DNA from: Caedibacter taeniospiralis
GTDB lineage: Bacteria > Pseudomonadota > Gammaproteobacteria > Francisellales > Francisellaceae
Length of the DNA: 32,000 nucleotides
NCBI RefSeq assembly: GCF_002803295.2
Contig: NZ_PGGB02000007.1
Span: forward strand, 57,414-89,413
Reading direction: 5' to 3'
Both the position numbers and the translations under genes were made by a program. Below the pieces are notes generated by a model. That model did not search any database. It was not told where the DNA came from and saw nothing but the letters and a program-made list of their open reading frames with translations. This document shows positions 5,301 to 31,565 of this stretch, one piece after another; within the stretch, counting starts at the first letter, position 1; every line of letters begins with the position of its first letter.

Positions 5301-5668
5301 TTAATCGCGCAACTTGGTTGTGCTGATGATAAAGCCAGTCCTGCTTTACAGTCTGGTAAGCCTGTGGTGTTCTCAATTTGTGTCCACAAAACGCCGCTTG
5401 CGGCTGGAAAATCAATGGCACTGATTGTGCTGCCTGTTTCTCCCGCGCCAAGTGCCAATGCGGCGGCTTGACTGCCTGTATTCACGACAGCCTCAAAAAC
5501 ACCTGCTTGATTAGTAACCATTGTTTCAGGCAGGCTGCTGAAAGTACTTAGGTTGATTGGCTCGGAACTGCTTGAGTCTGAGGAGCTGCTGGAGCTACCT
5601 CCACAACCTGCGAGTAATCCCAAGAGACTTGCACTAGTTAATAGGGAAATAAGTTTACGTTTTTTCAT
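2381..5668 (-). CDS. Giant surface lipoprotein with about 8 tandem Ig-like Cys-pair modules
   Basis: Signal peptide with lipobox LLAGC (Cys22), followed by a poly-Ser linker. Repeated modules carry C-x(8-16)-C pairs (SCLSGTPVVPGASCDLAIETN, DDSCTGSTLVPDASCSFSVNA, YCLAGGVVSAGGTCALGLQVE, NDTCGTTIAAHSSCSFDLDVA). These resemble choice-of-anchor-D / ASH-type domains. Confidence 0.85.
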   Translation of the reverse strand: MKKRKLISLLTSASLLGLLAGCGGSSSSSSDSSSSEPINLSTFSSLPETMVTNQAGVFEAVVNTGSQAAALALGAGETGSTISAIDFPAASGVLWTQIENTTGLPDCKAGLALSSAQPSCAIKALVESNSDGAKVDGNIQVKTNSQTISLPVKIQFVGAGNTALPLAEVTNVTAIAPDSTTTITLLNPAENTVALNNVSIRVPDWLADSMQNLKSAVLTHNLDGSRSILYSKDGRAENLSPGQSAVISFDLPGGSNISDAILAHYAELTNNPISKTVSVTAANLRNKISPAIEISAVPGKLDSSATLTDPAGFETLTFTNLANTVLTIETPGIQLDLPSDVHQLGGTCVDGHQLAASGETNDSCTIILHVDATAQPQSNKSLSIHYSDSAGNSFISQASVNVAPAEISIGTVGTSDALRVPESGQEVIHVSISNTGKFNWVPSNLPENYLISPEDQTLAAENIEVLGASLGSSCLSGTPVVPGASCDLAIETNINTAPGDYTLTLTPAQNLTTQQTKSFSVKGAVGKFQFSDGSTQIASTSLQIGGSQAITLNNIGQTPISGVAVNIPSPLTKTDDSCTGSTLVPDASCSFSVNAPDGMGAGNFIISADGTSGAQAVSHTIPVIVTGVNLSIAPVAAISVPMSGNSITEVLITNNSGFDWHPSTNVEDYQLTGTDTTGISMVGTGLSQAYCLAGGVVSAGGTCALGLQVESSANVGSYALNIRQATNLASAQSVIFDVIDNMGFVSFAPQIANIGKGSNPIVQTVTVNNSGNTDITNFYLTEPAELTTANNNCGSQSSPTTLASGSSCSFEVSADNSVTDGAYHYAAFGDAENCANCDGNTQMQVNVAGVTVTPGAIGDAGSIRRPATGNQVTDVSITNTNTQTAWEPSTTSSDYVISCVANGLDTCDTANVTIVAPSSGVSCLTGTSVAANASCTIGIQTNETSMRASYALTLRAHKNLSADSLPVDFSVDSSLGYLAYSAASTGSGLNTTSSPLNLPKRTTALNPDAVVNSITLENKGDTDVTGLTLNTSGQSSDLTVSNDTCGTTIAAHSSCSFDLDVANVDGNYTFTSSADVSSLSNNNASFKAAVGCAYS

Positions 5669-5886
5669 GGTTTTCTCCTTTTTGGTTTATCTGGGGTGAC
5701 AATTTAAATTACACTCTTTTATTGATCGTTTTTTGTCACAAGCACATAATACGTACAGATAAACCGTTAAAAAAGTATATATTTTGATCTACAGTGGTAA
5801 TAATTACCATCATAAGGATTAAGATAGTGCTTAGACAAAAATCTGGAAAACCATTCAATTAAAAATTATGGTATGTGCTGCTGCGC

Positions 5887-5916
5887 TTGACATCCTTAAT
5901 ACCTAGTCACTACACT
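5887..5916 (+). promoter_or_regulatory. Candidate sigma70 promoter (TTGACA-18 nt-TACACT)
   Basis: TTGACA lies at 5887-5892 and TACACT at 5911-5916, about 145 nt upstream of the CDS at 6060. This is a sequence match only. Confidence 0.25.
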
Positions 5917-6059
5917 CAACGCCAGAGGTTAAAGTATATGACCTCGTCAGTTGTCCGAAACTCAGCTTTGCGTTATGTTTACGCTTGAAGCTGGCAATTA
6001 TACATTGAAGGTTGTTGTGTTTTGGACGTTCATCGTAACCATATAGAAGGATTTAAATA

Positions 6060-16965: not shown

Positions 16966-17100
16966 GTGATTAAGATTCAAGATTTGCTAGATGAACAGTA
17001 ATGTTATGAAAAGGTGCGCGCATTACGTTGGGCAGATGGAGTGAGCTGTCCACATTGTATGGCGTCATCAGAAGAAATTGTAAAGAGAAGAAAAATTTAA
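16966..17100 (+). pseudogene. IS1595-family transposase, N-terminal zinc-ribbon fragment with an in-frame TAA
   Basis: VIKIQDLLDEQ*CYEKVRALRWADGVSCPHCMASSEEIVKRRKI*. The stop at 16999-17001 sits where this family normally has Lys (KCYEK). The fragment ends at 17098-17100. Confidence 0.7.
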
Positions 17101-17233
17101 ATGCGTGAGAATTACGTTTTAAACAGAAATAAGCAATTAGTTAAAGACTATAAAACTGTCGGTTCCACATTAGTAGCTAGTCTCAAAGTAATTAATAATA
17201 CAACAAGTATTAAAGTATAACAAATGAAAATAA

Positions 17234-17530
17234 ATAGGGTGCCTCGGGCCTCATGATAGATTTTGTATATCCATACACAAAATCGAATCGGCTATCCTCG
17301 GCGGTATAAATTTTGCCCGGGCCGCCCGCCTCAACGGTGCTTGTCCTCACAAATTCGCTACGCTCATTCCGAACAGACAACACGTTTCCGATTCTACTCT
17401 ACGCCTTGGGTAAAAGCTTTTTCACAGACTTCGCTCTGGCGCCTTCGGCACGTCGCTTGCTGATCAACAGCGCAAGGCTACCCGGGTCTACTCGCCCTCG
17501 CGTTCCGCTATCCATGGCTCGCAGCGATTG
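17234..17530 (+). mobile_element. GC-rich ORF-less repeat element, copy A, lying inside the IS1595 remnant
   Basis: The first 55 nt are identical to 31946-32000. A subterminal hairpin lies at 17259-17284 (GATTTTGT...ACAAAATC). GC-rich runs such as cccgggccgcccgcctc and gcgccttcggc occur in an AT-rich context. The right boundary is approximate. No convincing ORF is present. Confidence 0.6.
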
Positions 17531-17641
17531 AAGAAGTAATAATATTCAACGAACATAAAACTTGCAAATTGATATATCTATCACAAAACGATTGAACTCT
17601 GAGAAGGAATTGCTGAAATCAGCGAGTTGGTTTTACTTAAA

Positions 17642-17951
17642 GGTGATAATGTATGCGATGAAGTGTACGTTGTTGCCGGACACAAAAGGTCAGCCAGCTC
17701 AGGTTAAAAAAGGTCGCAAAGGCAGGAGAAACCGATTGAAAGGAGCAAGAGGTCGAGGCACTTTGGAGAAAGAAAAGCCTCCTATATTTGGGATGATTCA
17801 ACGTGGAGGAGAAGTGGTTATTCAGATGCCTCCTGATGTCAAACAAAAGACGATTAAACCGCATATTGAAGCGTGCATACAGCCTGGTAGCAAGGTATAT
17901 ACAGACGAGTATGCAATCTATTCCAATTTAACGAGTTATTGTCAAATTTAG
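17642..17951 (+). pseudogene. IS1595-family transposase, DDE-domain fragment (frameshifted and 3'-truncated)
   Basis: GDNVCDEVYVVAGHK is followed by a +1 shift in the A-run near 17683-17687. The sequence then reads GQPAQVKKGRKGRRNRLKGARGRGTLEKEKPPIFGMIQRGGEVVIQM...VYTDEYAIYSNL. It loses similarity at about 17930. Confidence 0.75.
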
Positions 17952-17959
17952 TGTATGGC

Positions 17960-18145
17960 TTAAGCGGCATTTTGTTTATCCTGTTTTATTTTGTCTACTT
18001 CATGCTCAGAGATCCCATCAATAAATTTAACCATATTAATCACCTCAGCCAGTCGCTGATGGCCTCTTAATCTCGACCAGGTTTTCTCAGCCTGTCTAGC
18101 AAGTTTAAAGAAAGCGCAAAGTAGCTTTGGGTAATCAGGCATCAT
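17960..18145 (-). pseudogene. C-terminal fragment of an IS256/Mutator-family transposase
   Basis: FKLARQAEKTWSRLRGHQRLAEVINMVKFIDGI matches the conserved IS256-family C-terminus (AEK.WRRLRG...L..VI.GV.F.DG). Only about 60 codons remain. Confidence 0.6.
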
Positions 18146-18174
18146 TTTGCTGGAACGGTACTCTGCGACAGAAC

Positions 18175-18855
18175 TTACCTGTTTATTGAGTAATTTTGGT
18201 TAATTCGGTTTTCAAAGTCTTGTTTTGATTCAAACATAGTCTTGAAGGGTGTGTTGAAAGGCTCTTTTGTTTCCGTAAAATATCCCTCTACAATATTATT
18301 TGACCAATTTTTGTCTTTCGATTTCATATTCATTATTTCGTACGCCTTTTTAGACGAAATTTCATTAATTTGGTTTAAAGTAAAATGGTTATACCTCCCC
18401 TTTTCATCATGTGTTTTGAAATACTTTGAAAGTTCATGTGTTGATATTTCATATACTCCTTTATTAGGTTCAAAGTATAACGATTTTTCGCTGTTAATTA
18501 CATTAACTGCTATTATATGACCTGTTTCTTTTTTATCGTGTCGCATCTCTATATTATAAAGCCCTGGAGGAGAATTGATAATTAAATTTGCTAAGGTCTC
18601 CATGGTATTTGATTTGAATAAAGTTTTACTTTCTAAAAACTGTTCAGCATAAATTTTATCTTCATCTTCTTTTATTAGACTAACTTTAGTTTGTATCAGA
18701 TCAGCAATAGTTGAACTTACATAAGCATCTTTTGTTTTTTTTACGAGCTGGTTGTGTGAAAAGTTAACGACAGCTCCAAAGCACCTCCCACCTACAGGAG
18801 CACCTAAAAATGCTTTTCCACGGTTATTAAATGTTATCAGTTTTTTTTGGGGCAT
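18175..18855 (-). CDS. Candidate YopT/C58-like papain-fold cysteine protease (effector-like, very AT-rich)
   Basis: The Cys/His/acid spacing fits: GGRC(25)FGAV, TGH(113)IIAVNV, YFE(129)PNKGVY. The last motif resembles the fDPN.G motif of YopT/AvrPphB-type proteases. No signal peptide is present, and the composition is much more AT-rich than the core genes. Confidence 0.45.
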   Translation of the reverse strand: MPQKKLITFNNRGKAFLGAPVGGRCFGAVVNFSHNQLVKKTKDAYVSSTIADLIQTKVSLIKEDEDKIYAEQFLESKTLFKSNTMETLANLIINSPPGLYNIEMRHDKKETGHIIAVNVINSEKSLYFEPNKGVYEISTHELSKYFKTHDEKGRYNHFTLNQINEISSKKAYEIMNMKSKDKNWSNNIVEGYFTETKEPFNTPFKTMFESKQDFENRINQNYSINR

Positions 18856-19130
18856 TATTTTATTCCTTATTTGTTTGTGATGTCATGTTAGCGAATTCAG
18901 TGTAAATAAGATATGTTTGAAGATCAAGACCATTGAATTAAAGTCATCAAAATGACTGGGCTCTTCTGCGTTTCTTGTTGGTATGGAATTCAGTAGCCAT
19001 AAGGGTTAGAATGAGTGTAGTAAAGCAAAACAGCCCTGCAACCTAGTAAAGATAAGCGACCAATCAGCAAGTTCTTTTCCGTTTTTTCTTACTCGACCAA
19101 ATAGCTATTGCCACTATCATCATATATAGC

Positions 19131-19508
19131 TTATTCCATAAATACTTTACGTATTGCTTGTGTAATCGCCTCTGCATATCCCAATAAAAAACCGGTGAAA
19201 AAATTACAAAAATAATGAATATCTTCTTTAGAAAAGAGCTCGTCATTTGGAGCGTGATAAGCCTCACTAGATCCTGATTCAGAGGTGTCGACTATTTGTC
19301 TTATATCGAACTCTATATAAGACCGCATATGAAACATGTGCAACAAATAAGCGCTGGATTTTGCCTCTTTTTGCACCTCTAACTCAAACATGAAGCTAAA
19401 TGATCCCTTCCAAGAATCATAATATCCATCACTATATCCTGTGGGGGATTTTAAGGATTGATATATTTTGGGGAGGTTAAGAACATCCTCGGACAAAATA
19501 TGCCCCAC
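19131..19508 (-). CDS. Hypothetical protein (125 aa, GTG start)
   Basis: This is an open reading frame only. It is AT-rich, has no recognised motif and no clear RBS. Confidence 0.3.
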   Translation of the reverse strand: MGHILSEDVLNLPKIYQSLKSPTGYSDGYYDSWKGSFSFMFELEVQKEAKSSAYLLHMFHMRSYIEFDIRQIVDTSESGSSEAYHAPNDELFSKEDIHYFCNFFTGFLLGYAEAITQAIRKVFME

Positions 19509-19590
19509 CGAAAAATAATTCGTGGGAACGAGGAGATAACTCAGTCAAGTGTGACTATTTTGCTTTAGGCATCACTTGTTGCATAAAACC

Positions 19591-20439
19591 CTATTTAAGA
19601 AGCACTCGAATTTCTGTCAAAAGTTCTGTTTCAGCTACCTCATGATCAAAATTGTAATAACAGAATATGCAAGGTAGATCACCTAACTCTTCGCCTGACT
19701 GCGGCAACCAATCGCGATAGAGACCATAAATCGTATCTCCAATATTATCACGAGAACCTTTATGCGTAGTGACAGCATACCTCCCAGCAGGTAGCGTTTT
19801 TTCGATAACCTGATTATTCAATTTAAACTCTTGGGGGACGCTAAGCGCCAAATCAAAACGAAACTCTTCTGGTTTTACTTCTTTTGGGTCATGATAGCCA
19901 AAACCAAAAGCTTCTCCTGGTTTTGGTTTTAGGTTAATTGACTGTGCCTTTACCCACGTCATGAGCTTATCAAGCGTGTCGGATAATCTCACGGGATCTC
20001 CATGATGCTCCATCACAGCAACTCTTTTAGCTGGTAGTTTTTTAATCGTTATTGTCATAATTTTTTCACCTTTGATATGTAATGGCTGTGGCGGATTTTC
20101 AAATCTTTCCCAATTAGCCTTACACCTAAACTCGCTTGGGCTTTGCCCGCAAACTTGTTTAAAAGCACGACTAAATGCTTCATGGGACTCAAATCCAGCA
20201 TCTACAGCAATGTTAATAATTGTTGCCTCTTTATGCACAATCAATTGGTGGGCCGCGCGTTTAAGCCTTAGCCACTTGATATAGCCCATGAGAGGTAACC
20301 CTGTATAAACTGTAAACAACCGATGAAAGTGATATTTTGAGAAGCAAGCGATACGGCAAAGCTCATCCAGCTCAAGCTCTTCATCAAGATGCTTGCCTAT
20401 GAAATCAATCACTCTGTCGACTCGTTCTTTGTAACTCAT
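19591..20439 (-). CDS. AraC-family transcriptional regulator with a GyrI-like effector-binding domain
   Basis: The N-terminal HTH region is LDELCRIACFSKYHFHRLF...AVDAGFESHEAFSRAFKQVCGQSPSEFR. The C-terminal GyrI-like half has a Rob/SoxS-related architecture. Confidence 0.85.
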   Translation of the reverse strand: MSYKERVDRVIDFIGKHLDEELELDELCRIACFSKYHFHRLFTVYTGLPLMGYIKWLRLKRAAHQLIVHKEATIINIAVDAGFESHEAFSRAFKQVCGQSPSEFRCKANWERFENPPQPLHIKGEKIMTITIKKLPAKRVAVMEHHGDPVRLSDTLDKLMTWVKAQSINLKPKPGEAFGFGYHDPKEVKPEEFRFDLALSVPQEFKLNNQVIEKTLPAGRYAVTTHKGSRDNIGDTIYGLYRDWLPQSGEELGDLPCIFCYYNFDHEVAETELLTEIRVLLK

Positions 20440-20617
20440 AATATCCTGTACTTCAGTTGTAACCGTCTACATGGATAAAAATACGACGTTTATGTTTTTT
20501 ATGCTTGACCACCATTGCTAATCTTCATTCAGTTATACTGCCATATGTAAAAATGTAAGTAACCTCAGTTCGGAGTTACGGTTCATAAAACACTCAATCT
20601 TTTTTGCCCAACAATAG

Positions 20618-20708
20618 TAGTAGGGTGGATAAGCCGCAGGCGCATCCACGCGGAAAAGCAAACAGGTTAAGTATTGGTGGATGCGCCTGCGGCTTATCCA
20701 CCCTACTA
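20618..20708. repeat. REP/BIME-like element: 32-bp perfect inverted repeat with a 27-nt loop
   Basis: The arms are 20618-20649 (tagtagggtggataagccgcaggcgcatccac) and 20677-20708, which is the exact reverse complement. Each arm is itself a small hairpin (GTGGAT...ATCCAC). Confidence 0.9.
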
Positions 20709-20914
20709 AGTTTCTGCACGTAAGATGCGCTAATTCGAGCATTTTTAAGTGCCCACTAACTCAGCAACTCTTGAAAAGACGATGCTTTGGCAAGATTTTT
20801 ATGTCGAACTCACGTTAAGTAACTTGCGAAAAAAAGCATAAGCATCTTCGGATGGATTAGGATTGCTTAAATCGTAAACCTCCATGCAAAGACTGAAGAT
20901 AGGTATCTAAAGTT

Positions 20915-21397
20915 TTATCCATTCATAACCTCATCAATAATTCGTTTTTGTAAGCCAGCTTCAGGGCTATTCTTATATGTTATCTGACAAAGCTCAAATG
21001 TTGCTTTCCAAAGTGCCCAGGCACGTGCACGAAGCCATGTATCAGTATCCATATCCATTTCAGAAATAAAAATCTTACGTGCTTTACCGCTCAAATACGT
21101 CCAGGCAATTACTAAGTCACAGGCAGGATCGCCAACGGCAGCGCCGCCAAAGTCAATGACTGCTGATAGTTTTCCACCATCCATCAGTATATTGCCAATC
21201 GCAAAATCCCCATGAATCCATATGGGCGCCTTATTCCATCTCGTCGCATACGCCTGATCCCATAAAGCTAATGCTTTGCCTGCATCTATAATCTCAGCTA
21301 GCTCTGCGATCTGTTCTCGCGCTCCTTTATCGTAAACGCTGACATGATCACCGCGCCACCAGTTATGCTGACCAGGCTCAGATTTTTTGTCATTCAA
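20915..21397 (-). pseudogene. Aminoglycoside-phosphotransferase (APH) family kinase, C-terminal half only
   Basis: WWRGDHVSVYD...PIWIHGDFAIGNIL...SAVIDFGGAAVGDPACDLVIAWT...TWLRARAWALWKA carries the catalytic HGD..N and DFG motifs. The nucleotide-binding N-lobe is missing, and the ORF begins at a TTG. Confidence 0.75.
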
Positions 21398-21495
21398 TCA
21401 ATTTTTCCTTATGCTCATAAACACGACGAGATAAATTGCTTGTCACACCAAATATAAAGAGTACCATTTCTTTTAGAAGCCAGAATATATACCCA
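21390..21495 (-). pseudogene. GIY-YIG (UPF0213-type) nuclease remnant, frameshifted and truncated
   Basis: The minus strand reads WVYILASKRNGTLYI, then a 1-nt shift in a T-run, then GVTSNLSRRVYEHKEKLIE*. This is the N-terminal motif block of small GIY-YIG proteins, and the rest is absent. Confidence 0.6.
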
Positions 21496-21533
21496 ACAGC
21501 GTTTCATTTACTACCTTTTCCATATTGTTCTGG

Positions 21534-21553
21534 ATTCCCGCATGCGCGGGAAT
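21534..21553. repeat. Short palindromic unit ATTCCCGC-ATGC-GCGGGAAT
   Basis: 8-bp stem with a 4-nt loop. It translates to the ...VIPAHAGIQ... artefact peptide seen in ORF 21473..21664. Confidence 0.7.
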
Positions 21554-21660
21554 GACGATAAAGCGAGGCACGCCTTTGTTTCTCAACATCAACGATAGGC
21601 AAGTCGCTGAATTTATGAGTTTGCGCGCAAGATCAAGAGTTGGCATAATCGATTTGTCGT

Positions 21661-22128
21661 TCATAACTCTACCTCCATCACCGTCACAGGATGAGATTTA
21701 AATTCATCCATACCGATTTTCCTCCATCCAAGACGTTCGTAGTACTCTGGTATCGTGAGATCAAAAGCAAACAAGTACAGTTTTTCAAAGCCAAGCTCTT
21801 TTGCTTTCTGCACAGCCACATCAATCAGCATCCTGCCAATGCCTTGCTTTTGATGTTTTGGATCGAGGACAAGTGAACCGAGCCAAGGAGTAAGATCTGA
21901 ACGAATGCCATCATTTTCACGCAAAGAGCACATGCCAACCGGTAAATCGCCACCTAATGCAATAAAAGTGATTGGTAAAGCTTGATCATTCAAGTGATCT
22001 GCAAACCTTGTGATAACACGTTCAACGGGTACCTCAGGAACCCAGATTTTACCCAATACTTCATGCCAAATATGAGTGAGTGCTGGGATAGCGTCTGTAT
22101 GCTTTTTAATCATGTCAATTTTGATCAT
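21661..22128 (-). CDS. GNAT-family N-acetyltransferase (155 aa)
   Basis: The acetyl-CoA binding motif is LVLDPKHQKQGIGRMLIDVAVQKAKELGFEKLYL. ATG at 22126-22128 has GAAGGT upstream. Confidence 0.85.
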   Translation of the reverse strand: MIKIDMIKKHTDAIPALTHIWHEVLGKIWVPEVPVERVITRFADHLNDQALPITFIALGGDLPVGMCSLRENDGIRSDLTPWLGSLVLDPKHQKQGIGRMLIDVAVQKAKELGFEKLYLFAFDLTIPEYYERLGWRKIGMDEFKSHPVTVMEVEL

Positions 22129-22193
22129 AATTTACCTTCGATAGTTTTTATGGCTTCAGGTGGGGACTCTTGTAATCATAGTGATCCGTTCCA

Positions 22194-22478
22194 TTATTCC
22201 TCTTTCAACTGCCTTAAATATTCTTTTGTCGCTTTACGACTGGGGTAAAGCGTTTTTAGAAAAAACACATCCTCTGTGTCTTTAACATACGGAACACAAT
22301 AAACGGTACCCAAACACAAAATACGCATAACGCGCTGATGTGGATATCGTGTTTGATTAGTGTGCATAACAATATCAATGATGTTACCTTTTTCAATTTC
22401 AGTAATCATCTCGGCAAATCCAATCCCTCTTTGTTCAAGCAACCACGAATTTTTTTCCTCGCTATACTTAAATTTCAT
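22194..22478 (-). CDS. BrnT/DUF497-like type II toxin
   Basis: KFKYSEEKNSWLLEQRGIGFAEM resembles the BrnT N-terminus (F.WDE.KN..N..KHG..FEEA). The C-terminal segment is LKTLYPSRKATKEY. The gene lies 4 nt downstream of its partner. Confidence 0.6.
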   Translation of the reverse strand: MKFKYSEEKNSWLLEQRGIGFAEMITEIEKGNIIDIVMHTNQTRYPHQRVMRILCLGTVYCVPYVKDTEDVFFLKTLYPSRKATKEYLRQLKEE

Positions 22479-22482
22479 CAGA

Positions 22483-22746
22483 TTACCATCCCGTGATCGC
22501 GTCTTTATGAAGCACCATGTTGATATAAGTTTGATACGGTATACCTAGCTTAGAAGCTTTAATTTGCATTGCTTCCAAATCGGCTTCATGAATTCTAATG
22601 GTCACCAATTTTTTAGTTTTCATATAACGTTTGGCAGCTTTTTTCAACAACGTTATCTCAGCTTCCATATCTGGAATTGGCTGCATAGATTCAAGATTAT
22701 TTTCAATCTCTTGCTCAAATTCATCGAGCGAAACTTTTTTTCTCAT
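22483..22746 (-). CDS. BrnA/CopG-like antitoxin
   Basis: ATG at 22744-22746 has a perfect AGGAGG upstream. The C-terminal VTIRIHEADLEAMQIKASKLGIPYQTYINMVLHK carries the ...PYQ(S/T).I... motif of this antitoxin family. Confidence 0.6.
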   Translation of the reverse strand: MRKKVSLDEFEQEIENNLESMQPIPDMEAEITLLKKAAKRYMKTKKLVTIRIHEADLEAMQIKASKLGIPYQTYINMVLHKDAITGW

Positions 22747-22917
22747 AAAACCTCCTATGATCATTTGAGAAGATAAAAAAGGAATAAGGAGGTTGTATTA
22801 TATTAGGAATACTTTGTCAATACAGAATCAAATAATTGTAGAGAGTAAATAAACTGCCCTAAGTAAGAACACATGAATTGTCCTGTCTAAACTAGTTCAT
22901 AAACCAACCTCATCACC

Positions 22918-24063
22918 CTATATAGAATTAGCTTTTAATTTATCCATTTTGACTGTGCCTGTTTTATAAAACCGATATTCAACTTCGTCCAAGATCTGAC
23001 CAGATTCGCTTTTCTTAATATATTCAGCCTCTACTTTCCCTCCCAATTTTTCTGCAAGCGCTCTGCTGGCAAAATTATTTTTTTCAACGGGGTATTTTAA
23101 GTAATTAAATGATAGATTTTCCTCTGCCCAATCTTTTAATAATGACAATGCTTCAAATCCATAACCTTGACCGTGAGCTTCTTCTTTAAGCCAAATCCCC
23201 ATTTCTGGAGTGGCTGTATTTAACGCATGGATTGCAATGTAGCCTACAAACTCTTGCGACTCTTTTTTCAAAACAAGCAATGCTAATTCCTCTCCCTTAG
23301 ACATCGCTTGTTGCTGCTCTAAAATATGTTGATTAATTTGCGCCTGCGTTTTAGGAGCGCTTGACCACATCCACCTTGTGATTTTGGCTGTAAAATTTTT
23401 ACAGATATCTTCGGCATATTCCATGCTCAGGGTTTCTAGCAACAATTTTTCTCCTGTTAGCTGTACTCCATTGAGATCACCTATCGCAAGGATGATTGGT
23501 TCAATTTTTTTGATGAGTAAGTGATGTAATTTGCCACTCCCGCTACAATCTCCATCCATCACAAAGTCAGCAATATACTCAAAACCTGCTTTCATGTAAA
23601 CGTGCCTTGCTCTTGGGTTATCGGCTGCTGGGTCTATGATGAATGTATCTGCGGATACGTCGAATTCTCTTCTGAAGAAATCAAGAAACTCTGATAACGT
23701 TTTGGCACCATAGCCTCTGCCAAAATAGTGTTTATCCCCGATCATGTAATCGATACCATGCGTATTACCAGTTTTTGAAAGGTGGTTTAATTTGATGCCA
23801 CCCTCATGATCTTCTGCTGTTTCTTGGATCGTCATTAGCATGGCAAACGGATGAGCATTACAGCTTGCTATCCAGTAAACATATTTGCCATCACAATAAT
23901 TTGAAGGTTCTCTTCGACCATTAACAAAACTTAAAATATCGTCTTTATGACCTTGTGTATTATCCCAAAATTCCTGAATAAAAGGTTCAGAAAGCCAGTC
24001 AAATATAATGTCAACGTGACTTACGCTGGCTTTTTCAAAATGGATTTCAGGCAGTTTACTCAT
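22918..24063 (-). CDS. Two-domain acetyltransferase: AAC(6')-Ib-like GNAT plus RimJ/RimL-like GNAT
   Basis: The N-domain (FDWLSEPFIQEFWD...GIDYMIGDKHYFGRGYGAKT...IIDPAADNPRARHVYMKAGFE) follows the AAC(6')-Ib / Acetyltransf_8 pattern. The C-domain is ...IWLKEEAHGQGYGFEALSLL...NNFASRALAEKLGG. The ATG at 24061-24063 overlaps the upstream stop by 8 nt. Confidence 0.8.
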   Translation of the reverse strand: MSKLPEIHFEKASVSHVDIIFDWLSEPFIQEFWDNTQGHKDDILSFVNGRREPSNYCDGKYVYWIASCNAHPFAMLMTIQETAEDHEGGIKLNHLSKTGNTHGIDYMIGDKHYFGRGYGAKTLSEFLDFFRREFDVSADTFIIDPAADNPRARHVYMKAGFEYIADFVMDGDCSGSGKLHHLLIKKIEPIILAIGDLNGVQLTGEKLLLETLSMEYAEDICKNFTAKITRWMWSSAPKTQAQINQHILEQQQAMSKGEELALLVLKKESQEFVGYIAIHALNTATPEMGIWLKEEAHGQGYGFEALSLLKDWAEENLSFNYLKYPVEKNNFASRALAEKLGGKVEAEYIKKSESGQILDEVEYRFYKTGTVKMDKLKANSI

Positions 24064-25093
24064 CCTCACCACCCAAGTCTTTTGCAAGCTCAGCTTCAAG
24101 TTCTTCGATTGTTGGTAATGCGGTTTTGAGATTTTCTGGTAGTGCATCTTCAAGCCTATATTCAGCAAGACCTATTGGTTTTGTCATGTCACGCAAGGCA
24201 TATTCTGCAAGAACATTATTTTTACTTTTACACAGAATCAGCCCTATAGAGGGTTGATCTGTTTCGTGCTTTACAAGATCATCAACAGCGGAAAGATAGA
24301 AATTCATTTTGCCTGCATATTCTGGCTTGAACTTCCCAGATTTTAGCTCGATCACCACAAAACAGCGTAGCTTGATGTGGTAAAACAGGAGGTCAATGTA
24401 AAAATCTTGATCTTCAATTTGAAGGTGGTATTGCCTGCCTAAAAACGCAAAACCTTCACCAAGCTCAAGGAGGAATTTCTCAATATGGGCTACTAATCCT
24501 TTTTCTACCTCACGTTCGTGGGCATTTTTTCCAAGGCTCAAGAAATCAAAGAGATATGGATTTTTTAAGGTGGCTTGTGCTAAATCAGACTGCCGCATAG
24601 GCAATTTATCTTGAAAATTTGTCACCGCATTGCCTTGGCGTTTAAATAAGTTTGTTTCAATTTGCATTGATAGCACATTGCGAGACCACCCATTTTGCAG
24701 AGTGCCTTTAATATAAAAATGTCGCTCGGTTTTGCCTGATATAGCGTATATCAAGGTTACAATATGACCCCAAGGTATTTGGTCAACAGCCTGTTGACCA
24801 ATTTCCTCTGCCTTATATTCCTCGGCGAATTTGCGCATATATTTCAGATTTTGGGGGCTAAAGCCTTTCATATCAGGAAACTCAGAGCGTAAATCTCTTG
24901 ATAATTGCTCAATGACCTTGGTTCCCCAGCCTTGCCTGCCTTGGGCTTCAAGTATTTGCGTGCCTATGTGATGATAAAGCAGAATAAGCTCTTTATTGAC
25001 GCTAAGCGCCGCTTTATATCTTGACGCTGCAACACGATTTTTTAGATCGGCAAGAAACGTATTGTATTCTTGGGTGGTAATGTTTTTAGTCAC
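24056..25093 (-). CDS. DUF1016 / YhcG-family PD-(D/E)XK nuclease domain protein
   Basis: LLYHHIGTQI...GFSPQNLKYMRKFAE...YIDLLFYHIKLRCFVVIELKSGKF...GKMNFYLS is characteristic of YhcG. The GTG at 25091-25093 overlaps the upstream TGA (GTGA). The TTG alternative at 25162 would overlap the upstream gene by 73 nt. Confidence 0.8.
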   Translation of the reverse strand: MTKNITTQEYNTFLADLKNRVAASRYKAALSVNKELILLYHHIGTQILEAQGRQGWGTKVIEQLSRDLRSEFPDMKGFSPQNLKYMRKFAEEYKAEEIGQQAVDQIPWGHIVTLIYAISGKTERHFYIKGTLQNGWSRNVLSMQIETNLFKRQGNAVTNFQDKLPMRQSDLAQATLKNPYLFDFLSLGKNAHEREVEKGLVAHIEKFLLELGEGFAFLGRQYHLQIEDQDFYIDLLFYHIKLRCFVVIELKSGKFKPEYAGKMNFYLSAVDDLVKHETDQPSIGLILCKSKNNVLAEYALRDMTKPIGLAEYRLEDALPENLKTALPTIEELEAELAKDLGGEDE

Positions 25094-25944
25094 TCCTTGT
25101 CTCCATCGATTACAGTGCCTTGGTGATAGAGAATTTTCCAAGCACCATTTACTCTTCGCCAAATCGTTGATCTTCTGGTCATTCTTGTTTTGTTTTGAAT
25201 AAGAACGTAGGTGAGCAAATAATTATCTGCGGCAATTTGGGTGAGGGTAAAGTCTTTTGCTTCCCAAATATCTTGATACTCTCGTTCACTATAACGCTTA
25301 AGCAGAGTATCTATGACATCTTTTTTGGTGTAGACATTACCTGATGCACCAACCTCCCAAAATTCATCACACATTTGAGCTTCAATATCTTGTTTTGTCT
25401 TCCCAAGTTTTTCAGGATGATGAAAAATCGGTTCTCTTGATTTGAGTTCTTCCAATACCGCCCCATGATGAGAAGTAAACTCTTCATCAAAAAACTTTTG
25501 AAACGTTACTCCATTAAGATCAGACTCATAAAACTGAGGCATAATGTAGGCTTCAGTAAAACCGACTGAGGTGTAAAATTTTCTGCCCTCAACATTATCA
25601 ACAGGGGTGTCAACGTAAATGCCCCGTTGTTGCCTGTTTTTAGAAGAAAGCTTCACTTGCTCAACAAGGTTTTTAGCAATCCCTAGTCTTCTGGAATCAG
25701 GACGCACAACAAGACCCTGTAATTGTGTCAACGTATTCCAAGTATGATGTTCAGCCTGAATAAAGCCAACGACAACTTGTTCGTGAATGGCGACAAACAC
25801 TTCTCCTGTTTGACTGCGAAAAAGCTTTTGCATCCCTATTAATTGCCCCTGCACATACTGATCAGCCCAGCCGATGATTTTCAGAAGGTTCTCAACAGAG
25901 ATGGCGTCTTTTTCTTCAAAAGACCTGATGACAACACCTTTCAT
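25090..25944 (-). CDS. GNAT acetyltransferase fused to an NTF2-like (DUF4440-type) domain
   Basis: The GNAT part is LQGLVVRPDSRRLGIAKNLVEQV. The C-terminal FWEVGASGNVYTKKDV...YLLTYVLIQN...RRSTIWRRVNGAWKILYHQGT is typical of DUF4440. The ATG at 25942-25944 overlaps the upstream TGA (ATGA). Confidence 0.8.
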   Translation of the reverse strand: MKGVVIRSFEEKDAISVENLLKIIGWADQYVQGQLIGMQKLFRSQTGEVFVAIHEQVVVGFIQAEHHTWNTLTQLQGLVVRPDSRRLGIAKNLVEQVKLSSKNRQQRGIYVDTPVDNVEGRKFYTSVGFTEAYIMPQFYESDLNGVTFQKFFDEEFTSHHGAVLEELKSREPIFHHPEKLGKTKQDIEAQMCDEFWEVGASGNVYTKKDVIDTLLKRYSEREYQDIWEAKDFTLTQIAADNYLLTYVLIQNKTRMTRRSTIWRRVNGAWKILYHQGTVIDGDKE

Positions 25945-26876
25945 ATCGCCTTCCTCATCAAATAGCAGGTCAGATCGTATTTCCAATTTGGAATAACAGC
26001 CACTTCTTCAAACCCACATTTTTTGAAAAACTGACAGGCTTTGGGGAAATAAGTGTTTAGCTGAATTTCACGAAGATTATGCGCTTTACCGAGCTCTAAT
26101 AATTTGATTATGAGCTCTCTACCCAGCCCTTTGTTTTGCAATCTTTCTTCAACATAAATAGAATCGAGCCATAATATTTTTCCATGAATATAAGCGATAG
26201 CACCTGCGACGATTTTGTCATCTTGTTTGGTGTAAATATTATGTTTTTTAAAATCTTCTTCGATACTGGTTAAATCTTTGCATGTGTTTATCAAAGCTTT
26301 AGATGATTTTTCATCAAAAATTTGGTTTGGATCGTATGTAAAATAAAGAGGAAGTAATTGCTTAATCATCCAAGTGGTAGATTGTGTTTTAAATTGCTCA
26401 AATACTTCAAACCCCGCCTTTGTAAAGGCTTTAATTGCGCTTAGGTTATCTGTCGCTGGATCAATAAGACACCAATCAAAATGGGAGGTTAATACCTGTC
26501 TCCCAAATTCATTTAAAATTTTCGCTCCCCATCCTTTGTGTAGGAATGGTGACTCTCCAATGAATAAATCTATGCCGCATATAGATCCAGAAATAGCGCT
26601 TAAGTCTACGTTATTTTCTTGAGCGAAATCACGGGCATTATAAGACTGTATGTAACCTATCATTTCTTCGCCTGAGCACATGATATAAGCGTATGTTTTG
26701 TGATCTGAACTTTTTAAAAGAGGTTTACTGTGGATGTGTTTCCCAAATTTTTCTTTCACCAAATCTATCGTATACCTCACATCCTGATCCCACCATTTTT
26801 TGACGTGAGGCGTCTCTAGCCACTTTAGAAGTAGTGGAAAATGTGATTCAGCTAAGGGAGTAAAAGTAATTTTCAT
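25941..26876 (-). CDS. Two-domain acetyltransferase: AAC(6')-Ib-like GNAT plus a second GNAT
   Basis: LLLKWLETPHVKKWWDQD...IGYIQSYNA...GIDLFIGESPFLHKGWGAKI...LIDPATDNLSAIKAFTKAGFE follows the AAC(6')-Ib pattern. The C-domain is LDSIYVEERLQNKGLGRELIIKLLELG. Confidence 0.8.
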   Translation of the reverse strand: MKITFTPLAESHFPLLLKWLETPHVKKWWDQDVRYTIDLVKEKFGKHIHSKPLLKSSDHKTYAYIMCSGEEMIGYIQSYNARDFAQENNVDLSAISGSICGIDLFIGESPFLHKGWGAKILNEFGRQVLTSHFDWCLIDPATDNLSAIKAFTKAGFEVFEQFKTQSTTWMIKQLLPLYFTYDPNQIFDEKSSKALINTCKDLTSIEEDFKKHNIYTKQDDKIVAGAIAYIHGKILWLDSIYVEERLQNKGLGRELIIKLLELGKAHNLREIQLNTYFPKACQFFKKCGFEEVAVIPNWKYDLTCYLMRKAI

Positions 26877-26954
26877 AGCATATCAATCTCTATAATGCTT
26901 GGTTTCAGCAAAGTCCTCGACAAAAGTGTGACCGCACAGCATACTCTACACGCT

Positions 26955-27659
26955 TCAGATGCTTCCACCACCATCAATGAATAAAGTCTGACCCGTAATA
27001 AATCCAGATTTTTCATTAAGGAAAAACTCAATGGCATAGGCAATTTCATCTGGTTCCCCAACACGACCAAGCGGAATCCCAGACATCACATGCTTTTCTC
27101 GTTCACCTCCCTTAGGATGGTTTGTGAAAAATTGATCAGTATTGATAGGACCAGGCGCAATTGCATTAACGGTAATCCCGTCTTTGGCCAATTCTAGAGC
27201 TAAAGTACGAGTCAATCCTATTACACCCGCTTTTGCTGTAGTATAACTAGAACAGCCAACTTTCCCCAATGCCGCTCGGCTAGCGATATTGAGAACGCGT
27301 CCCCAGCGCCTTTCTTTCATTCCTGGGGTGAATATCTTTGCTGCTTGTATAACAGGTCGTAAATTAATATCAAGTACAGAATAGAAATCAGTAAGCTCAA
27401 GTTCCTCCAGCAGTTGTGGTTTTGCAAATCCAACGTTATTAATAACCCCGTTGATACAGTGGTTGTGGAGAATTTTGTTAAAAATTAGGTCTGTCTCTTC
27501 AGCATTGCCTAAATCTGCTAAATAAAGTTCTCCAGGAAAGACACCATGAAATTTGTTTCTGGCAACCCCTACAACGTTATAACCAATACGATGAAGGTGG
27601 ATAGCTGTCGCCAGCCCAATTCCTTTGGTGCTCCCTGTGATTAGAATGGTTTTTTCCAT
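26955..27659 (-). CDS. Short-chain dehydrogenase/reductase (FabG-like)
   Basis: The motifs present are ITGSTKGIGLA (TGxxxGIG), NNVG, and the catalytic S...YxxxK (YTTAKAG). Confidence 0.9.
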   Translation of the reverse strand: MEKTILITGSTKGIGLATAIHLHRIGYNVVGVARNKFHGVFPGELYLADLGNAEETDLIFNKILHNHCINGVINNVGFAKPQLLEELELTDFYSVLDINLRPVIQAAKIFTPGMKERRWGRVLNIASRAALGKVGCSSYTTAKAGVIGLTRTLALELAKDGITVNAIAPGPINTDQFFTNHPKGGEREKHVMSGIPLGRVGEPDEIAYAIEFFLNEKSGFITGQTLFIDGGGSI

Positions 27660-27727
27660 TTTTTCATTTTCCTCTCTTATGTGCAGAAAGTTTAGTCATT
27701 AAAGTAATGCCATTAATATCTTAAATC

Positions 27728-27991
27728 AATGGCAACTACCTTAAAAGCTTAACTACCCCGCCTCGCAGGCCTGACCACTTTAAAGTGGTCAGGCAGGCTC
27801 GGCACCCCTTCACTAGTGAAGGGGAATTTTGGAAGCCATCGTAGCTTAATTCCCCTTCGTTAGCGAAGGGGGTGAAAAGCGCCCGAAAGAAGCAAACAGT
27901 TTTGCTTCTTTAGCTTTGAACGCCACAAGCTCTGCGCGTGAGGCTGACGGGGTAGTCTTGACACAGATAAATCATTAAGGTAGTTGCCATT
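27728..27991. ncRNA. 264-nt GC-rich multi-hairpin element closed by a 17-bp perfect inverted repeat (structured RNA or MITE; class unknown)
   Basis: Outer helix: 27728-27744 with 27975-27991. Second helix: 27752-27764 with 27940-27956, with a 4-nt bulge. Internal hairpins lie at 27769-27794, 27805-27824, 27852-27871 and 27886-27911. There is no ORF, and the strand is undetermined. Confidence 0.5.
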
Positions 27992-30464: not shown

Positions 30465-31565
30465 TTACGGGGCAATAGTAAGCTGATCCTGTTGCAACAC
30501 ATCTTTAATTGTTAATGCGCCATTATCGAGCCAAAAACGAGTGTCTGGCTTAGCTTGTAAAATAAGTAGTGTCATTAATGGGTGATTCAGTTTAACTAAT
30601 TTGTCATTTTGCACGCGCTTAAATAAATGTTTTCTATGATATAAAACGCCATTCTTATACTCAAACATTGGAGTATAGTTTGACGTTTCCACAGGTCGGG
30701 GAAGGTAATCTATTACACGATATTCCTTAGGCAAGACACCAGTTTGGAAAGCTTTATAAACTTCGTCAACCGACACTTGAACAGCCTCTATCATCATCTC
30801 CAGATTTTGTTTATTTTCTTTATCATATGCTCTAGCATCGCCATATGCCAGCCAAGTTTGGCTTTTACCATCTTTTTTTATGTTATTGGTAACCTCTAAT
30901 CCATATAAATTTTCTTCATTGTGCATTGTTCCAGCCAGTAACCCGCCAACTGTCGTAGAAAATATTTCCAAAGCAAGCTCTTTTCTGGGTGCTCTCAAAT
31001 GACCTGCAGCAAATGTATCTGTTAAAAAATGATTAGCAAAACCATCTTGAGCGTAAGCTAACTCTAGCAACATTCTTTGCTTTGTATTGTTAGTTTCGTT
31101 ATGCGCCGCAATGGCTGTGTCAATTGCAACTGCATGCCCAGCTGCATAAGCTTTAAAAGCGTAGCCTCCATAAGCAAAATGATCCCAGTTAGTTTCACTT
31201 AGCTGCAGCATTCTTCCCTTTGGAATATATGCGCTGATTACAGAGCCACCGCCTGTTGCAATATTGTACTCTTTATTAAGCGTGCTGTTGATTTCTTTAT
31301 ATGCTTTGGATGGTTCTTCACCACGATTTAGAGCATCATTAATCAAGTTTTTTTCTTGTTCAATAATACTCAACAGCTTTGGCACCTCGATTAGTGCACG
31401 CTTTTCCTGAGCCAAAGTATTAAAAGCATTTATAAAACGTTGCTTCCTTTCACTTTCTGTTTTGCCATCAGAGATAGGGACGTCCACAATACCAAAAAAA
31501 TCAGGCATTGCGACAAATTCACCATAAGTAAGCCTAAGCCCATTATAACCATAAAAAGATGGCAA
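30465..31565 (-). CDS. Putative zinc-dependent phospholipase C / P1-nuclease-fold protein (effector-like); the N-terminus is probably disrupted
   Basis: AYAQDGFANHFLTDTFAAGHLRAPR resembles the H..D....H metal motif of Zn-PLC (alpha-toxin HYFGDIDTPYH). The ORF starts only at a TTG with no RBS. A good RBS+ATG at 31829 lies in the same frame but is separated from it by four stop codons. Confidence 0.5.
   Translation of the reverse strand: MPSFYGYNGLRLTYGEFVAMPDFFGIVDVPISDGKTESERKQRFINAFNTLAQEKRALIEVPKLLSIIEQEKNLINDALNRGEEPSKAYKEINSTLNKEYNIATGGGSVISAYIPKGRMLQLSETNWDHFAYGGYAFKAYAAGHAVAIDTAIAAHNETNNTKQRMLLELAYAQDGFANHFLTDTFAAGHLRAPRKELALEIFSTTVGGLLAGTMHNEENLYGLEVTNNIKKDGKSQTWLAYGDARAYDKENKQNLEMMIEAVQVSVDEVYKAFQTGVLPKEYRVIDYLPRPVETSNYTPMFEYKNGVLYHRKHLFKRVQNDKLVKLNHPLMTLLILQAKPDTRFWLDNGALTIKDVLQQDQLTIAP

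Follow-up and report, generated by a model that had tools for sequence, protein, structure and literature searches.

A YhcG/DUF1016 nuclease gene inside a probable remnant of a resistance-like enzyme array in Caedibacter taeniospiralis

Caedibacter is an endosymbiont of Paramecium. The window, i.e. the whole stretch of 32,000 nucleotides of C. taeniospiralis DNA analysed here (contig NZ_PGGB02000007.1, positions 57,414 to 89,413), carries on its minus strand five co-directional genes, A to E, and one of them (gene D) encodes a nuclease of the YhcG/DUF1016 family which lies among acetyltransferases of the GNAT fold. These five open reading frames (ORFs) and their coordinates agree with those of an earlier description made from the sequence alone, referred to below as the original prediction. 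The genes and the overlaps that join the last four of them are the following.

26955-27659, minus strand: gene A, SDR oxidoreductase (Pfam adh_short_C2, 1.9e-44)
25941-26876, minus strand: gene B, 311 residues, Acetyltransf_8 plus a second GNAT domain (Pfam)
25941-25944, minus strand: ATGA overlap of B and C (B stop TGA, C start ATG), read base by base, with a purine-rich AGGAAGG upstream
25090-25944, minus strand: gene C, 284 residues, GNAT plus DUF4440 (NTF2-like) (Pfam)
25090-25093, minus strand: GTGA overlap of C and D (C stop TGA, D start GTG), read base by base
24056-25093, minus strand: gene D, YhcG/DUF1016 PD-(D/E)XK nuclease, 345 residues, GTG start (Pfam, PADLOC)
24056-24063, minus strand: ATGAGTAA, 8-nt overlap of D and E (D stop TAA, E start ATG), read base by base
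22918-24063, minus strand: gene E, 381 residues, Acetyltransf_8 (E_N) plus a RimJ-like Acetyltransf_3 domain (Pfam)

The ORFs, the Pfam profiles and the bases themselves confirm the five genes, their domains and the three overlaps as they had been described. Gene B has an Acetyltransf_8 domain at residues 10-162 (1.1e-17, 64.4 bits, cut-off 27) and an Acetyltransf_1 domain at residues 206-289 (4e-16). Gene C, which is a 100% match to the C. taeniospiralis protein P0001, has Acetyltransf_7/1 at residues 41-131 (2e-12) and DUF4440 at residues 186-271 (1.4e-6, 29.2 bits, cut-off 25.2). Gene D matches DUF1016_N (1.4e-44, 151.9 bits, cut-off 32.8) and YhcG_C (3.9e-67, 225.4 bits, cut-off 32.5), and gene E matches Acetyltransf_8 at residues 15-167 (1e-10, 41.9 bits, cut-off 27) and Acetyltransf_3 at residues 207-342 (4.5e-32). 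According to Pfam, genes B to E hold in total five GNAT-fold domains, one NTF2-like domain and one PD-(D/E)XK nuclease. The Acetyltransf_8 domains of B and E are paralogous (29% identity over 177 residues) and each is fused to a different second acetyltransferase (Acetyltransf_1 in B, Acetyltransf_3 in E), as had also been noticed. The GTG start of D is backed by homology, every relative having an ATG at the equivalent codon (M-T-K-N-I). An exact-protein look-up of D returned no record. In a second C. taeniospiralis record, a 385-residue protein (P0241) is 96% identical to E and belongs either to another strain or to a second copy of the array genes.

Relatives of these genes recur elsewhere (loci with L numbers) in arrays which, in their canonical form, consist of 15-25 small, co-directional, coupled genes. 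The best example is L167. One of its strands carries GrpB, NUDIX, ABC exporter and SDR genes; the other begins with MarR, CPT kinase, Acetyltransf_8, nucleotidyltransferase-like+DUF4440, two NUDIX and GNAT genes and continues with a 524-residue Acetyltransf_8+GNAT+GNAT protein (E-like), GH5-like, aminoglycoside-phosphotransferase-family (APH), methyltransferase, GNAT, beta-lactamase-fold, TspO and AraC/GyrI genes. GNAT and hexapeptide acetyltransferases, APH and CPT-type kinases, and NUDIX, MazG and HAD hydrolases are all found among array members. A backbone made of the B_N and B_C parts of gene B, DUF4440, E_N, a GNAT gene called GNAT155 and APH recurs in L003, L089, L091, L092, L103, L105 and L177, and this gene order is conserved in L089, L091, L092, L105 and L167. 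Homologues of gene B with 311-312 residues and the same architecture follow MarR/CPT in L003, L089 and L177 (B_N is 77-78% identical in L003 and L089). The architecture of gene E recurs in L177 (78% identity) and L178 (66%), and its E_N part is 61-84% identical to the N-terminus of the 517-524-residue E-like proteins of canonical arrays. Literature searches (DUF4440/NUDIX/endosymbiont; GNAT/APH/NUDIX/MarR/TspO/CPT; Caedibacter genome) returned no published description of such arrays. The class, including its unusually conserved DUF4440 module, appears to be undescribed and to be a more interesting lead than the nuclease.

These comparisons already contradict the idea that unrelated genes have come together here by chance in a compact genome. 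The window does contain many overlapping co-directional genes (e.g. rarA and the Ppx-GppA-like ORF upstream of it), but the gene order recurs in many unrelated contigs and the YhcG subclade recurs in arrays, which makes chance extremely improbable. The original prediction, which had argued against chance, is upheld on this point: YhcG is found independently among acetyltransferases in L005, L007, L008, L010, L013, L085/86 and L171. The preferred explanation, to which a probability of about 60% may be given on the basis of sequence comparison, is that positions 19591-26876 of the window are an eroded copy of a horizontally circulating array of resistance-like enzymes, and that YhcG is a self-contained resident of the array, dispensable for the acetyltransferases.

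The original prediction had placed the unit at 22918-27659. It is operon-like as proposed, but it extends beyond gene E down to 19591, and the membership of gene A is doubtful. Indeed, gene A lies 78 nt upstream of B, in the same direction, and shares only 29% identity with the SDR of L167, which is divergently oriented; its identification with the divergent SDR of the arrays was rejected on identity and orientation. It scores 284 bits against the NCBIfam model PRK07577, below the cut-off of 310. The features found downstream of gene E are the following.

22194-22764, minus strand: toxin-antitoxin-like pair which splits the array (BrnA/CopG-type antitoxin at 22483-22764, unassigned 94-residue ORF at 22194-22478)
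21661-22128, minus strand: GNAT155 (Pfam Acetyltransf_1, 3.7e-13)
20918-21397, minus strand: truncated APH gene, residues ~136-290 left of a gene of 290-295 residues
20826-20922, minus strand: fossil of the array methyltransferase gene, first 32 codons, frameshifted
19591-20439, minus strand: AraC/GyrI-like (Rob-type) regulator, 282 residues, end of the array (NCBIfam RobA, 83 bits, below cut-off)

The genes past E match the distal part of an L167-type cluster, collinearly and with 76-88% identity. GNAT155 is 77-86% identical to the GNAT which precedes APH in L005, L085 and L092, its synonymous divergence (dS) to the L092 copy being 0.28, and the regulator is 76% identical, over all 282 residues, to the terminal AraC/GyrI protein of L167. 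When the APH proteins of L167 and L085 are used as tblastn queries, only their C-terminal 155 residues are found (83-88% identity), and the window APH matches its Pfam profile partially (positions 139-223 of 239). The methyltransferases of the same two loci give residues 1-9 and 9-32 in two frames. The window thus keeps the backbone order At8...DUF4440...E-like At8...GNAT155/APH...methyltransferase...AraC/GyrI with overlapping junctions, the proteins being 42-88% identical. It does not hold the complete set: tblastn with the L167 proteins MarR, CPT kinase, both NUDIX, beta-lactamase-fold, TspO and divergent ABC exporter found none of them in the window, and the C-terminal half of APH and the 32 methyltransferase codons were all that this gene set recovered.

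As judged from these matches, the window copy is a remnant of a larger array. It would have lost the MarR, kinase and NUDIX genes, kept fragments of APH and methyltransferase genes and gained the toxin-antitoxin pair. The antitoxin is recognized by Pfam (CopG_antitoxin 3.7e-8, BrnA_antitoxin 4e-5), its score against the NCBIfam BrnA model (25 bits) being below the cut-off, and no equivalent of the pair was called or detected at that position in the other arrays examined.

The array would be controlled by the ligand-sensing MarR and AraC/GyrI regulators, and each enzyme most likely acts independently on its own xenobiotic substrate, as the family memberships would suggest. The original prediction had considered a multi-target cluster for the modification of aminoglycosides and other xenobiotics. 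Xenobiotic or antibiotic modification is the best available reading of these enzymes at the level of families. The label "AAC(6')-Ib-like" is right as regards membership of Acetyltransf_8 and goes too far beyond that. AAC(6') models are the best NCBIfam matches of B_N and E_N, but the scores are 25-61 bits for cut-offs of 260-450 and none is reached: gene B has 61.3 bits against 280 (AAC_6p_set_A) and 46.3 against 400 (AAC_6p_Ib), and gene E 41.1 against 340 (AAC_6p_Ie_fam). Gene C has 47.5 bits against 140. By these profiles, the similarity to AAC(6') is at the superfamily level only. A bona fide multi-aminoglycoside resistance operon, with AAC(6') enzymes of the Ib/Ie type and auxiliary acetyltransferases, is therefore very unlikely, even if relatives in Legionella carry an APH fusion and bear the name "bifunctional AAC/APH", and the arrays contain APH genes: besides the scores, the window APH is truncated, and many of the families in the arrays have nothing to do with aminoglycosides.

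Coupling between genes is a property of the arrays as a whole. In L167, 12 of the 13 plus-strand junctions overlap, and nearly all do so in L003 and L085. The junction after DUF4440 in other arrays reads GAT GGA GGN AGC ATA TGA, which combines a GGAGG Shine-Dalgarno motif with ATGA, and it is kept whatever gene comes next (MazG-like, NUDIX, P-loop kinase or, in the window, YhcG); at the window C/D junction its ATG has changed to GTG. Among distant YhcG genes, co-directional neighbours overlap in 10 of 41 cases upstream and in 11 of 35 cases downstream. By such counts, three consecutive overlaps are not exceptional by themselves. Since enzymes of unrelated chemistry are joined all along the arrays, the overlaps would reflect compaction and promoter-distal polar expression rather than stoichiometric complexes, and the stoichiometric co-expression which had been deduced from them is not supported. 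YhcG would lack its own promoter and depend for its translation on coupling with the host operon. In scans for promoters and terminators, the numbers found were those expected by chance and do not inform on transcript boundaries.

The product of gene D is predicted to be a Mg-dependent PD-(D/E)XK endonuclease. The motif is retained (FYIDLLFY ... VVIELK): D234 does not vary among 47 relatives, and E249 and K251 are conserved in at least 90% of them. The protein matches the PADLOC profile PDC-S02, a candidate single-gene phage defence (8.5e-156, 516.6 bits). One PDC-S02 representative was assayed in E. coli B against T4, T5 and T7; four candidates gave protection, and it was not one of them (10.1101/2024.09.26.614923). 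A PDB sequence search with YhcG returned nothing significant. The AlphaFold2 model, obtained from a shallow alignment of 73-89% identical sequences, is good only for residues 1-150 (mean pLDDT 56), the catalytic domain being unreliable with a pLDDT below 50. A Foldseek search of this model against the PDB gave no match with E below 0.5, and the weak matches to ParB-like DNA-binding proteins (probability 0.4-0.6) were not used.

YhcG is under strong purifying selection, the ratio of nonsynonymous to synonymous substitutions (dN/dS) being 0.055-0.095, and its dS to every other copy is at least 1.3, including copies with 87% identity. Because synonymous sites are saturated among the closest copies, the high protein identity reflects constraint and not recent spread. 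The gene would owe its persistence to selection on a function of its own, putatively, and most likely, DNA-level conflict or element maintenance.

The subclade was defined as the YhcG proteins at least 70% identical to D, which are found in 11 independent contexts. Eight of these are arrays (the window and the seven loci listed above). The other three are a Tn5053-like unit, seen in L009 and, in Legionella pneumophila, in L174, and a GltX-YhcG-AlbA_2 locus. In the Tn5053-like unit (L174 4557-8825, and L009), a 74%-identical YhcG comes fourth, after resolvase, rve transposase and AAA_22 ATPase, at the usual place of TniQ, and the unit sits on a conjugative element. Homologues below 70% mostly have type I restriction genes as neighbours (N6_Mtase in 8 loci, Methylase_S in 6, HsdM_N in 6); distant YhcG genes lie between hsdM, hsdS and hsdR in restriction operons, often overlapping them. 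A Bandiella plasmid has YhcG inside a tra operon, with 8-nt overlaps on both sides, and the pLbaR RAGE of Rickettsia felis, a conjugative element, likewise carries YhcG within its tra genes (PMC4316617). The plasmid database contained no YhcG above 67% and no array-type DUF4440 (best match 51%; Legionella plasmid matches 32%). The possibility that YhcG is a cassette with conserved ends was rejected, since the flanks differ in every locus.

The reverse comparison shows that arrays do without YhcG. It is absent from the locus closest to B and C (L003, 72-77% identity), from those closest to E (L177, 78%, and L178, 66%), and from the backbone arrays L089, L091, L092, L105 and L167. In the loci seeded with DUF4440, it was found only in L088 (a 49%-identical type) and L156 (30% identical), and any kind of YhcG is present in about 1 in 10 informative DUF4440-seeded arrays. 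The original prediction had treated the nuclease as an integral part of the set, and the absence of DUF1016 from the closest relatives, which that prediction had itself named as a contrary outcome, speaks against this. YhcG looks like an accessory, optional, long-term resident of the arrays which the acetyltransferases do not need. That it acts independently is suggested above all by the lack of a partner gene constant across its contexts.

Within arrays, YhcG is always found at the E-like segment. In the window and in L171 it precedes an Acetyltransf_8 gene of the E_N type (in L171 the sequence is GGxGAGGATGAGTAA, then the Acetyltransf_8 gene), and in L007 and L085/86 it precedes a "PQFW" GNAT, a module that forms the C-terminus of the canonical E-like protein. 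YhcG and the adjacent E-like acetyltransferase might therefore form a functional two-gene module, in which acetylation would control the nuclease or the GNAT would modify the target of the nuclease, with the rest of the array as carrier. In favor of such a module, which is rather unlikely, a GNAT-fold gene directly follows YhcG in 8 of 9 array contexts and is always an E-like piece (E_N or "PQFW"), and the dN/dS of YhcG is below 0.1. However, the same YhcG clade adjoins GltX and SLFN_AlbA_2 or TniA/TniB-like genes outside arrays, distant YhcG genes lie in restriction-modification or tra operons, and E-like genes are widely found without YhcG. GNATs are moreover the commonest genes of the arrays, and shared ancestry inflates the count of 8 in 9.

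Several points weigh against the reading of an eroded array with a self-contained nuclease, and the first three of them concern functional coupling. The long purifying selection on array YhcG, together with its constant place beside the E-like GNAT module, could mean that the two are coupled. The 8-nt junction ATGAGTAA is identical in the window and L171 even though the downstream genes are only 44% identical, which could have the same meaning. So could P0164, a 497-residue protein in which YhcG carries a C-terminal "PQFW" GNAT (Acetyltransf_1, 26.8 bits); fusions of neighbours are however common in arrays, so that a single one is weak evidence for a module. Furthermore, the term "resistance-like" relies on families at the Pfam level, the AAC(6') and APH equivalog models being far below their cut-offs. 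Finally, the absence of YhcG was judged partly on short contigs (relevant flanks of 3 kb or more are available for only about 10 of the DUF4440-seeded loci), and metagenomic contigs are among those compared.

It is also conceivable, though quite unlikely, that YhcG is an actively mobile gene of the homing endonuclease type which repeatedly inserts between the genes of arrays and of other operons. Its presence is polymorphic in otherwise syntenic arrays, with flanking genes that differ at each locus, and it is carried by transposons and conjugative elements. The array genes of the window are closest (dS 0.3-1.0) to arrays devoid of YhcG, whereas the window YhcG has a dS of at least 1.3 to all copies. 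Yet its ends show no conserved flanks, repeats or target motif, the synonymous saturation, even in the closest copies, speaks against recent spread, and the constant E-like segment fits one old capture followed by rearrangement. The whole pattern fits an old, single capture beside an E-like gene, after which arrays were rearranged, recombined with one another as mosaics and often lost YhcG.

The simplest explanation of the two-domain proteins B, C and E is that adjacent array genes became fused, and the "interleaving" of domains in the operon would follow from this. With 4-nt overlaps, a single frameshift would join two reading frames. The DUF4440 part of gene C (residues 163-281) is 75-83% identical to C-terminal modules which have many different N-terminal partners: GNAT, Acetyltransf_8, nucleotidyltransferase-like, YciI, NUDIX, cupin, aldolase_II, zeta/CPT kinase and phosphatase (low-molecular-weight phosphatase). 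It stands alone in L013 and L097 and is joined to more than 10 partner types elsewhere; fusions of B_N, GNAT and DUF4440 with 442 residues also occur. In L171, the region 2564-6001 contains fossils of such events, with 28 residues of DUF4440 inside an At8-GNAT fusion, a 43-residue ORF which corresponds to the N-terminus of GNAT155 and a 40-residue ORF which corresponds to the C-terminus of APH. A PDB sequence search with the DUF4440 module returned nothing significant. The module is about 120 residues long (window 25093-25467; P0005-P0120), has 44 invariant columns, including the motif REPIFHHP, and has a dN/dS of 0.12-0.18.

Homologues of E_N with 60-84% identity are named from Candidatus Trichorickettsia, several Legionella ("bifunctional AAC/APH"), Holospora, Midichloriaceae and Chlamydiae. 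YhcG relatives with 66-87% identity come from Alphaproteobacteria, Holosporales, metagenome-assembled genomes of Gammaproteobacteria, Legionella, Wolbachia, Rickettsia and Bandiella. The dS between the array genes of the window and those of L092, L089, L003 and L167 is 0.28-0.99. These low values, together with the spread of E_N and YhcG homologues over taxa, point to horizontal exchange within a gene pool of intracellular bacteria. One could go further and see the arrays as a mobile "super-operon" shared between phyla (Legionella, Rickettsiales, Holosporales, Chlamydiae, Caedibacter), with a dedicated YhcG lineage that stays beside the E-like acetyltransferase because it works with the array, for instance as an acetylation-controlled nuclease, or as a guardian or an addiction module by which the array would be stabilised or policed. 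This larger scenario is unlikely.

Among known systems, YhcG nucleases which "piggy-back" on mobile elements (the R. felis pLbaR RAGE, PMC4316617; PDC-S02) have the same DUF1016_N + YhcG_C architecture, are found in the same guild (Rickettsia, Legionella and Wolbachia relatives, 66-74% identity) and also lie co-directionally inside a host operon. Here, in contrast, YhcG is hosted by an array of small-molecule-modifying enzymes and not by a type IV secretion or restriction operon, and a separate subclade (at least 70% identity) is specialised to it. The bifunctional AAC(6')-Ie/APH(2'')-Ia and the AAC(6')-Ib fusions resemble the array proteins in that an Acetyltransf_8-type domain is fused to a second modifying domain, and resistance clusters share with the arrays APH, CPT-like kinases, nucleotidyltransferase-like domains, MarR and AraC-type regulators and an exporter. 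Unlike them, the arrays are similar at the superfamily level only, are larger (15-25 genes) and chemically broader, do not consist of integron cassettes and occur in intracellular bacteria whose hosts are protists and arthropods. In the window, the overlaps of 4-8 nt between genes B to E leave no space for attC sites, and Rfam and tRNA scans of the whole stretch gave no match.

The AGAB cluster on RAGE-A of Rickettsia buchneri (PMC8770908, PMC6300072) is, likewise, a horizontally acquired antibiotic-related cluster of several genes in an intracellular bacterium and has an MdlB-type exporter. It is biosynthetic (PIG-L, KanB/BtrR-type aminotransferases), whereas the array has modifying and hydrolysing enzymes only and none of those genes, and the identification of the array with AGAB was rejected for this reason.

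Type I restriction-modification operons can have embedded effectors, such as those of the PrrC type. Distant YhcG genes share this embedding and the overlaps; at the present locus there are no restriction-modification genes, and the host operon is metabolic or detoxifying.

Type II systems with GNAT toxins (TacT/AtaT/KacT type) consist of a single-domain GNAT toxin and a small antitoxin gene of the ribbon-helix-helix/DUF1778 type. This architecture is not found here: the GNATs of B, C and E are all in fused two-domain proteins, and the sole antitoxin-like gene (BrnA/CopG, 22483-22764) is paired with the non-GNAT 94-residue ORF. PADLOC gave no match for any acetyltransferase, and YhcG lacks a constant partner. 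The second proposal made for the locus, a conflict system between acetyltransferase toxins and a nuclease, is thus not sustained, even if the invariable position of YhcG beside an E-like GNAT module and the YhcG-GNAT fusion leave it some room.

If the explanation by a circulating, eroded array is right, genome-reduced intracellular bacteria from several phyla would be a large unexplored reservoir of drug-modifying genes and a network for their exchange. Among these genes would be AAC/APH-type fusions which recall the bifunctional enzymes known from the clinic. The arrays would illustrate how domains become fused by the joining of neighbours, and how coupling junctions survive gene shuffling. 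The array-resident subclade would provide a defined genetic context for asking what the widespread YhcG/DUF1016 family does. For the finding from which this analysis started, the main consequence is deflationary: nothing particular about the nuclease can be read from the coupling, and its presence is optional.

On one side the island is bordered by an IS1595 fragment and a core gene of the RNase T family, on the other by rarA. No integrase came up in the Pfam scans, which covered ORFs between 12031 and 27659 and the ORF 30465-31565, and a megablast of the region against plasmids gave no match. A tyrosine integrase is present at the array edge in L177 (1-597). Genes related to mobility or conflict abut other arrays (a TOTE-type AEP fragment in L008, 4736-5293; a Fic gene in L167, 20772-21128). 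In the window, the transposase fragment (IS1595, ISXO2-like) is located at 17562-17951, at the rnt-proximal edge, and two ORFs without family match (18175-18855 and 19131-19508) separate it from the AraC/GyrI gene.

The window has a collinear counterpart in L087, a metagenomic contig of 29 kb, with 98.8-99.8% identity. Over 17085-27842, the island is 98.8% identical and the flanking core DNA 99.6-99.8% identical; GNAT155 has 93.5% protein identity, compared to 98-100% for every other window gene compared. The two sequences differ by an insertion or deletion of about 290 nt near the IS1595 fragment. A MITE-like element (27728-27991) lies between rarA and the SDR gene. It has perfect 17-nt terminal inverted repeats (AATGGCAACTACCTTAA) around approximately 230 nt, and its palindrome-rich interior contains CCCCTTCACTAGTGAAGGGG twice plus a 22-nt hairpin. 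The L087 copy of this element is about 30 nt longer.

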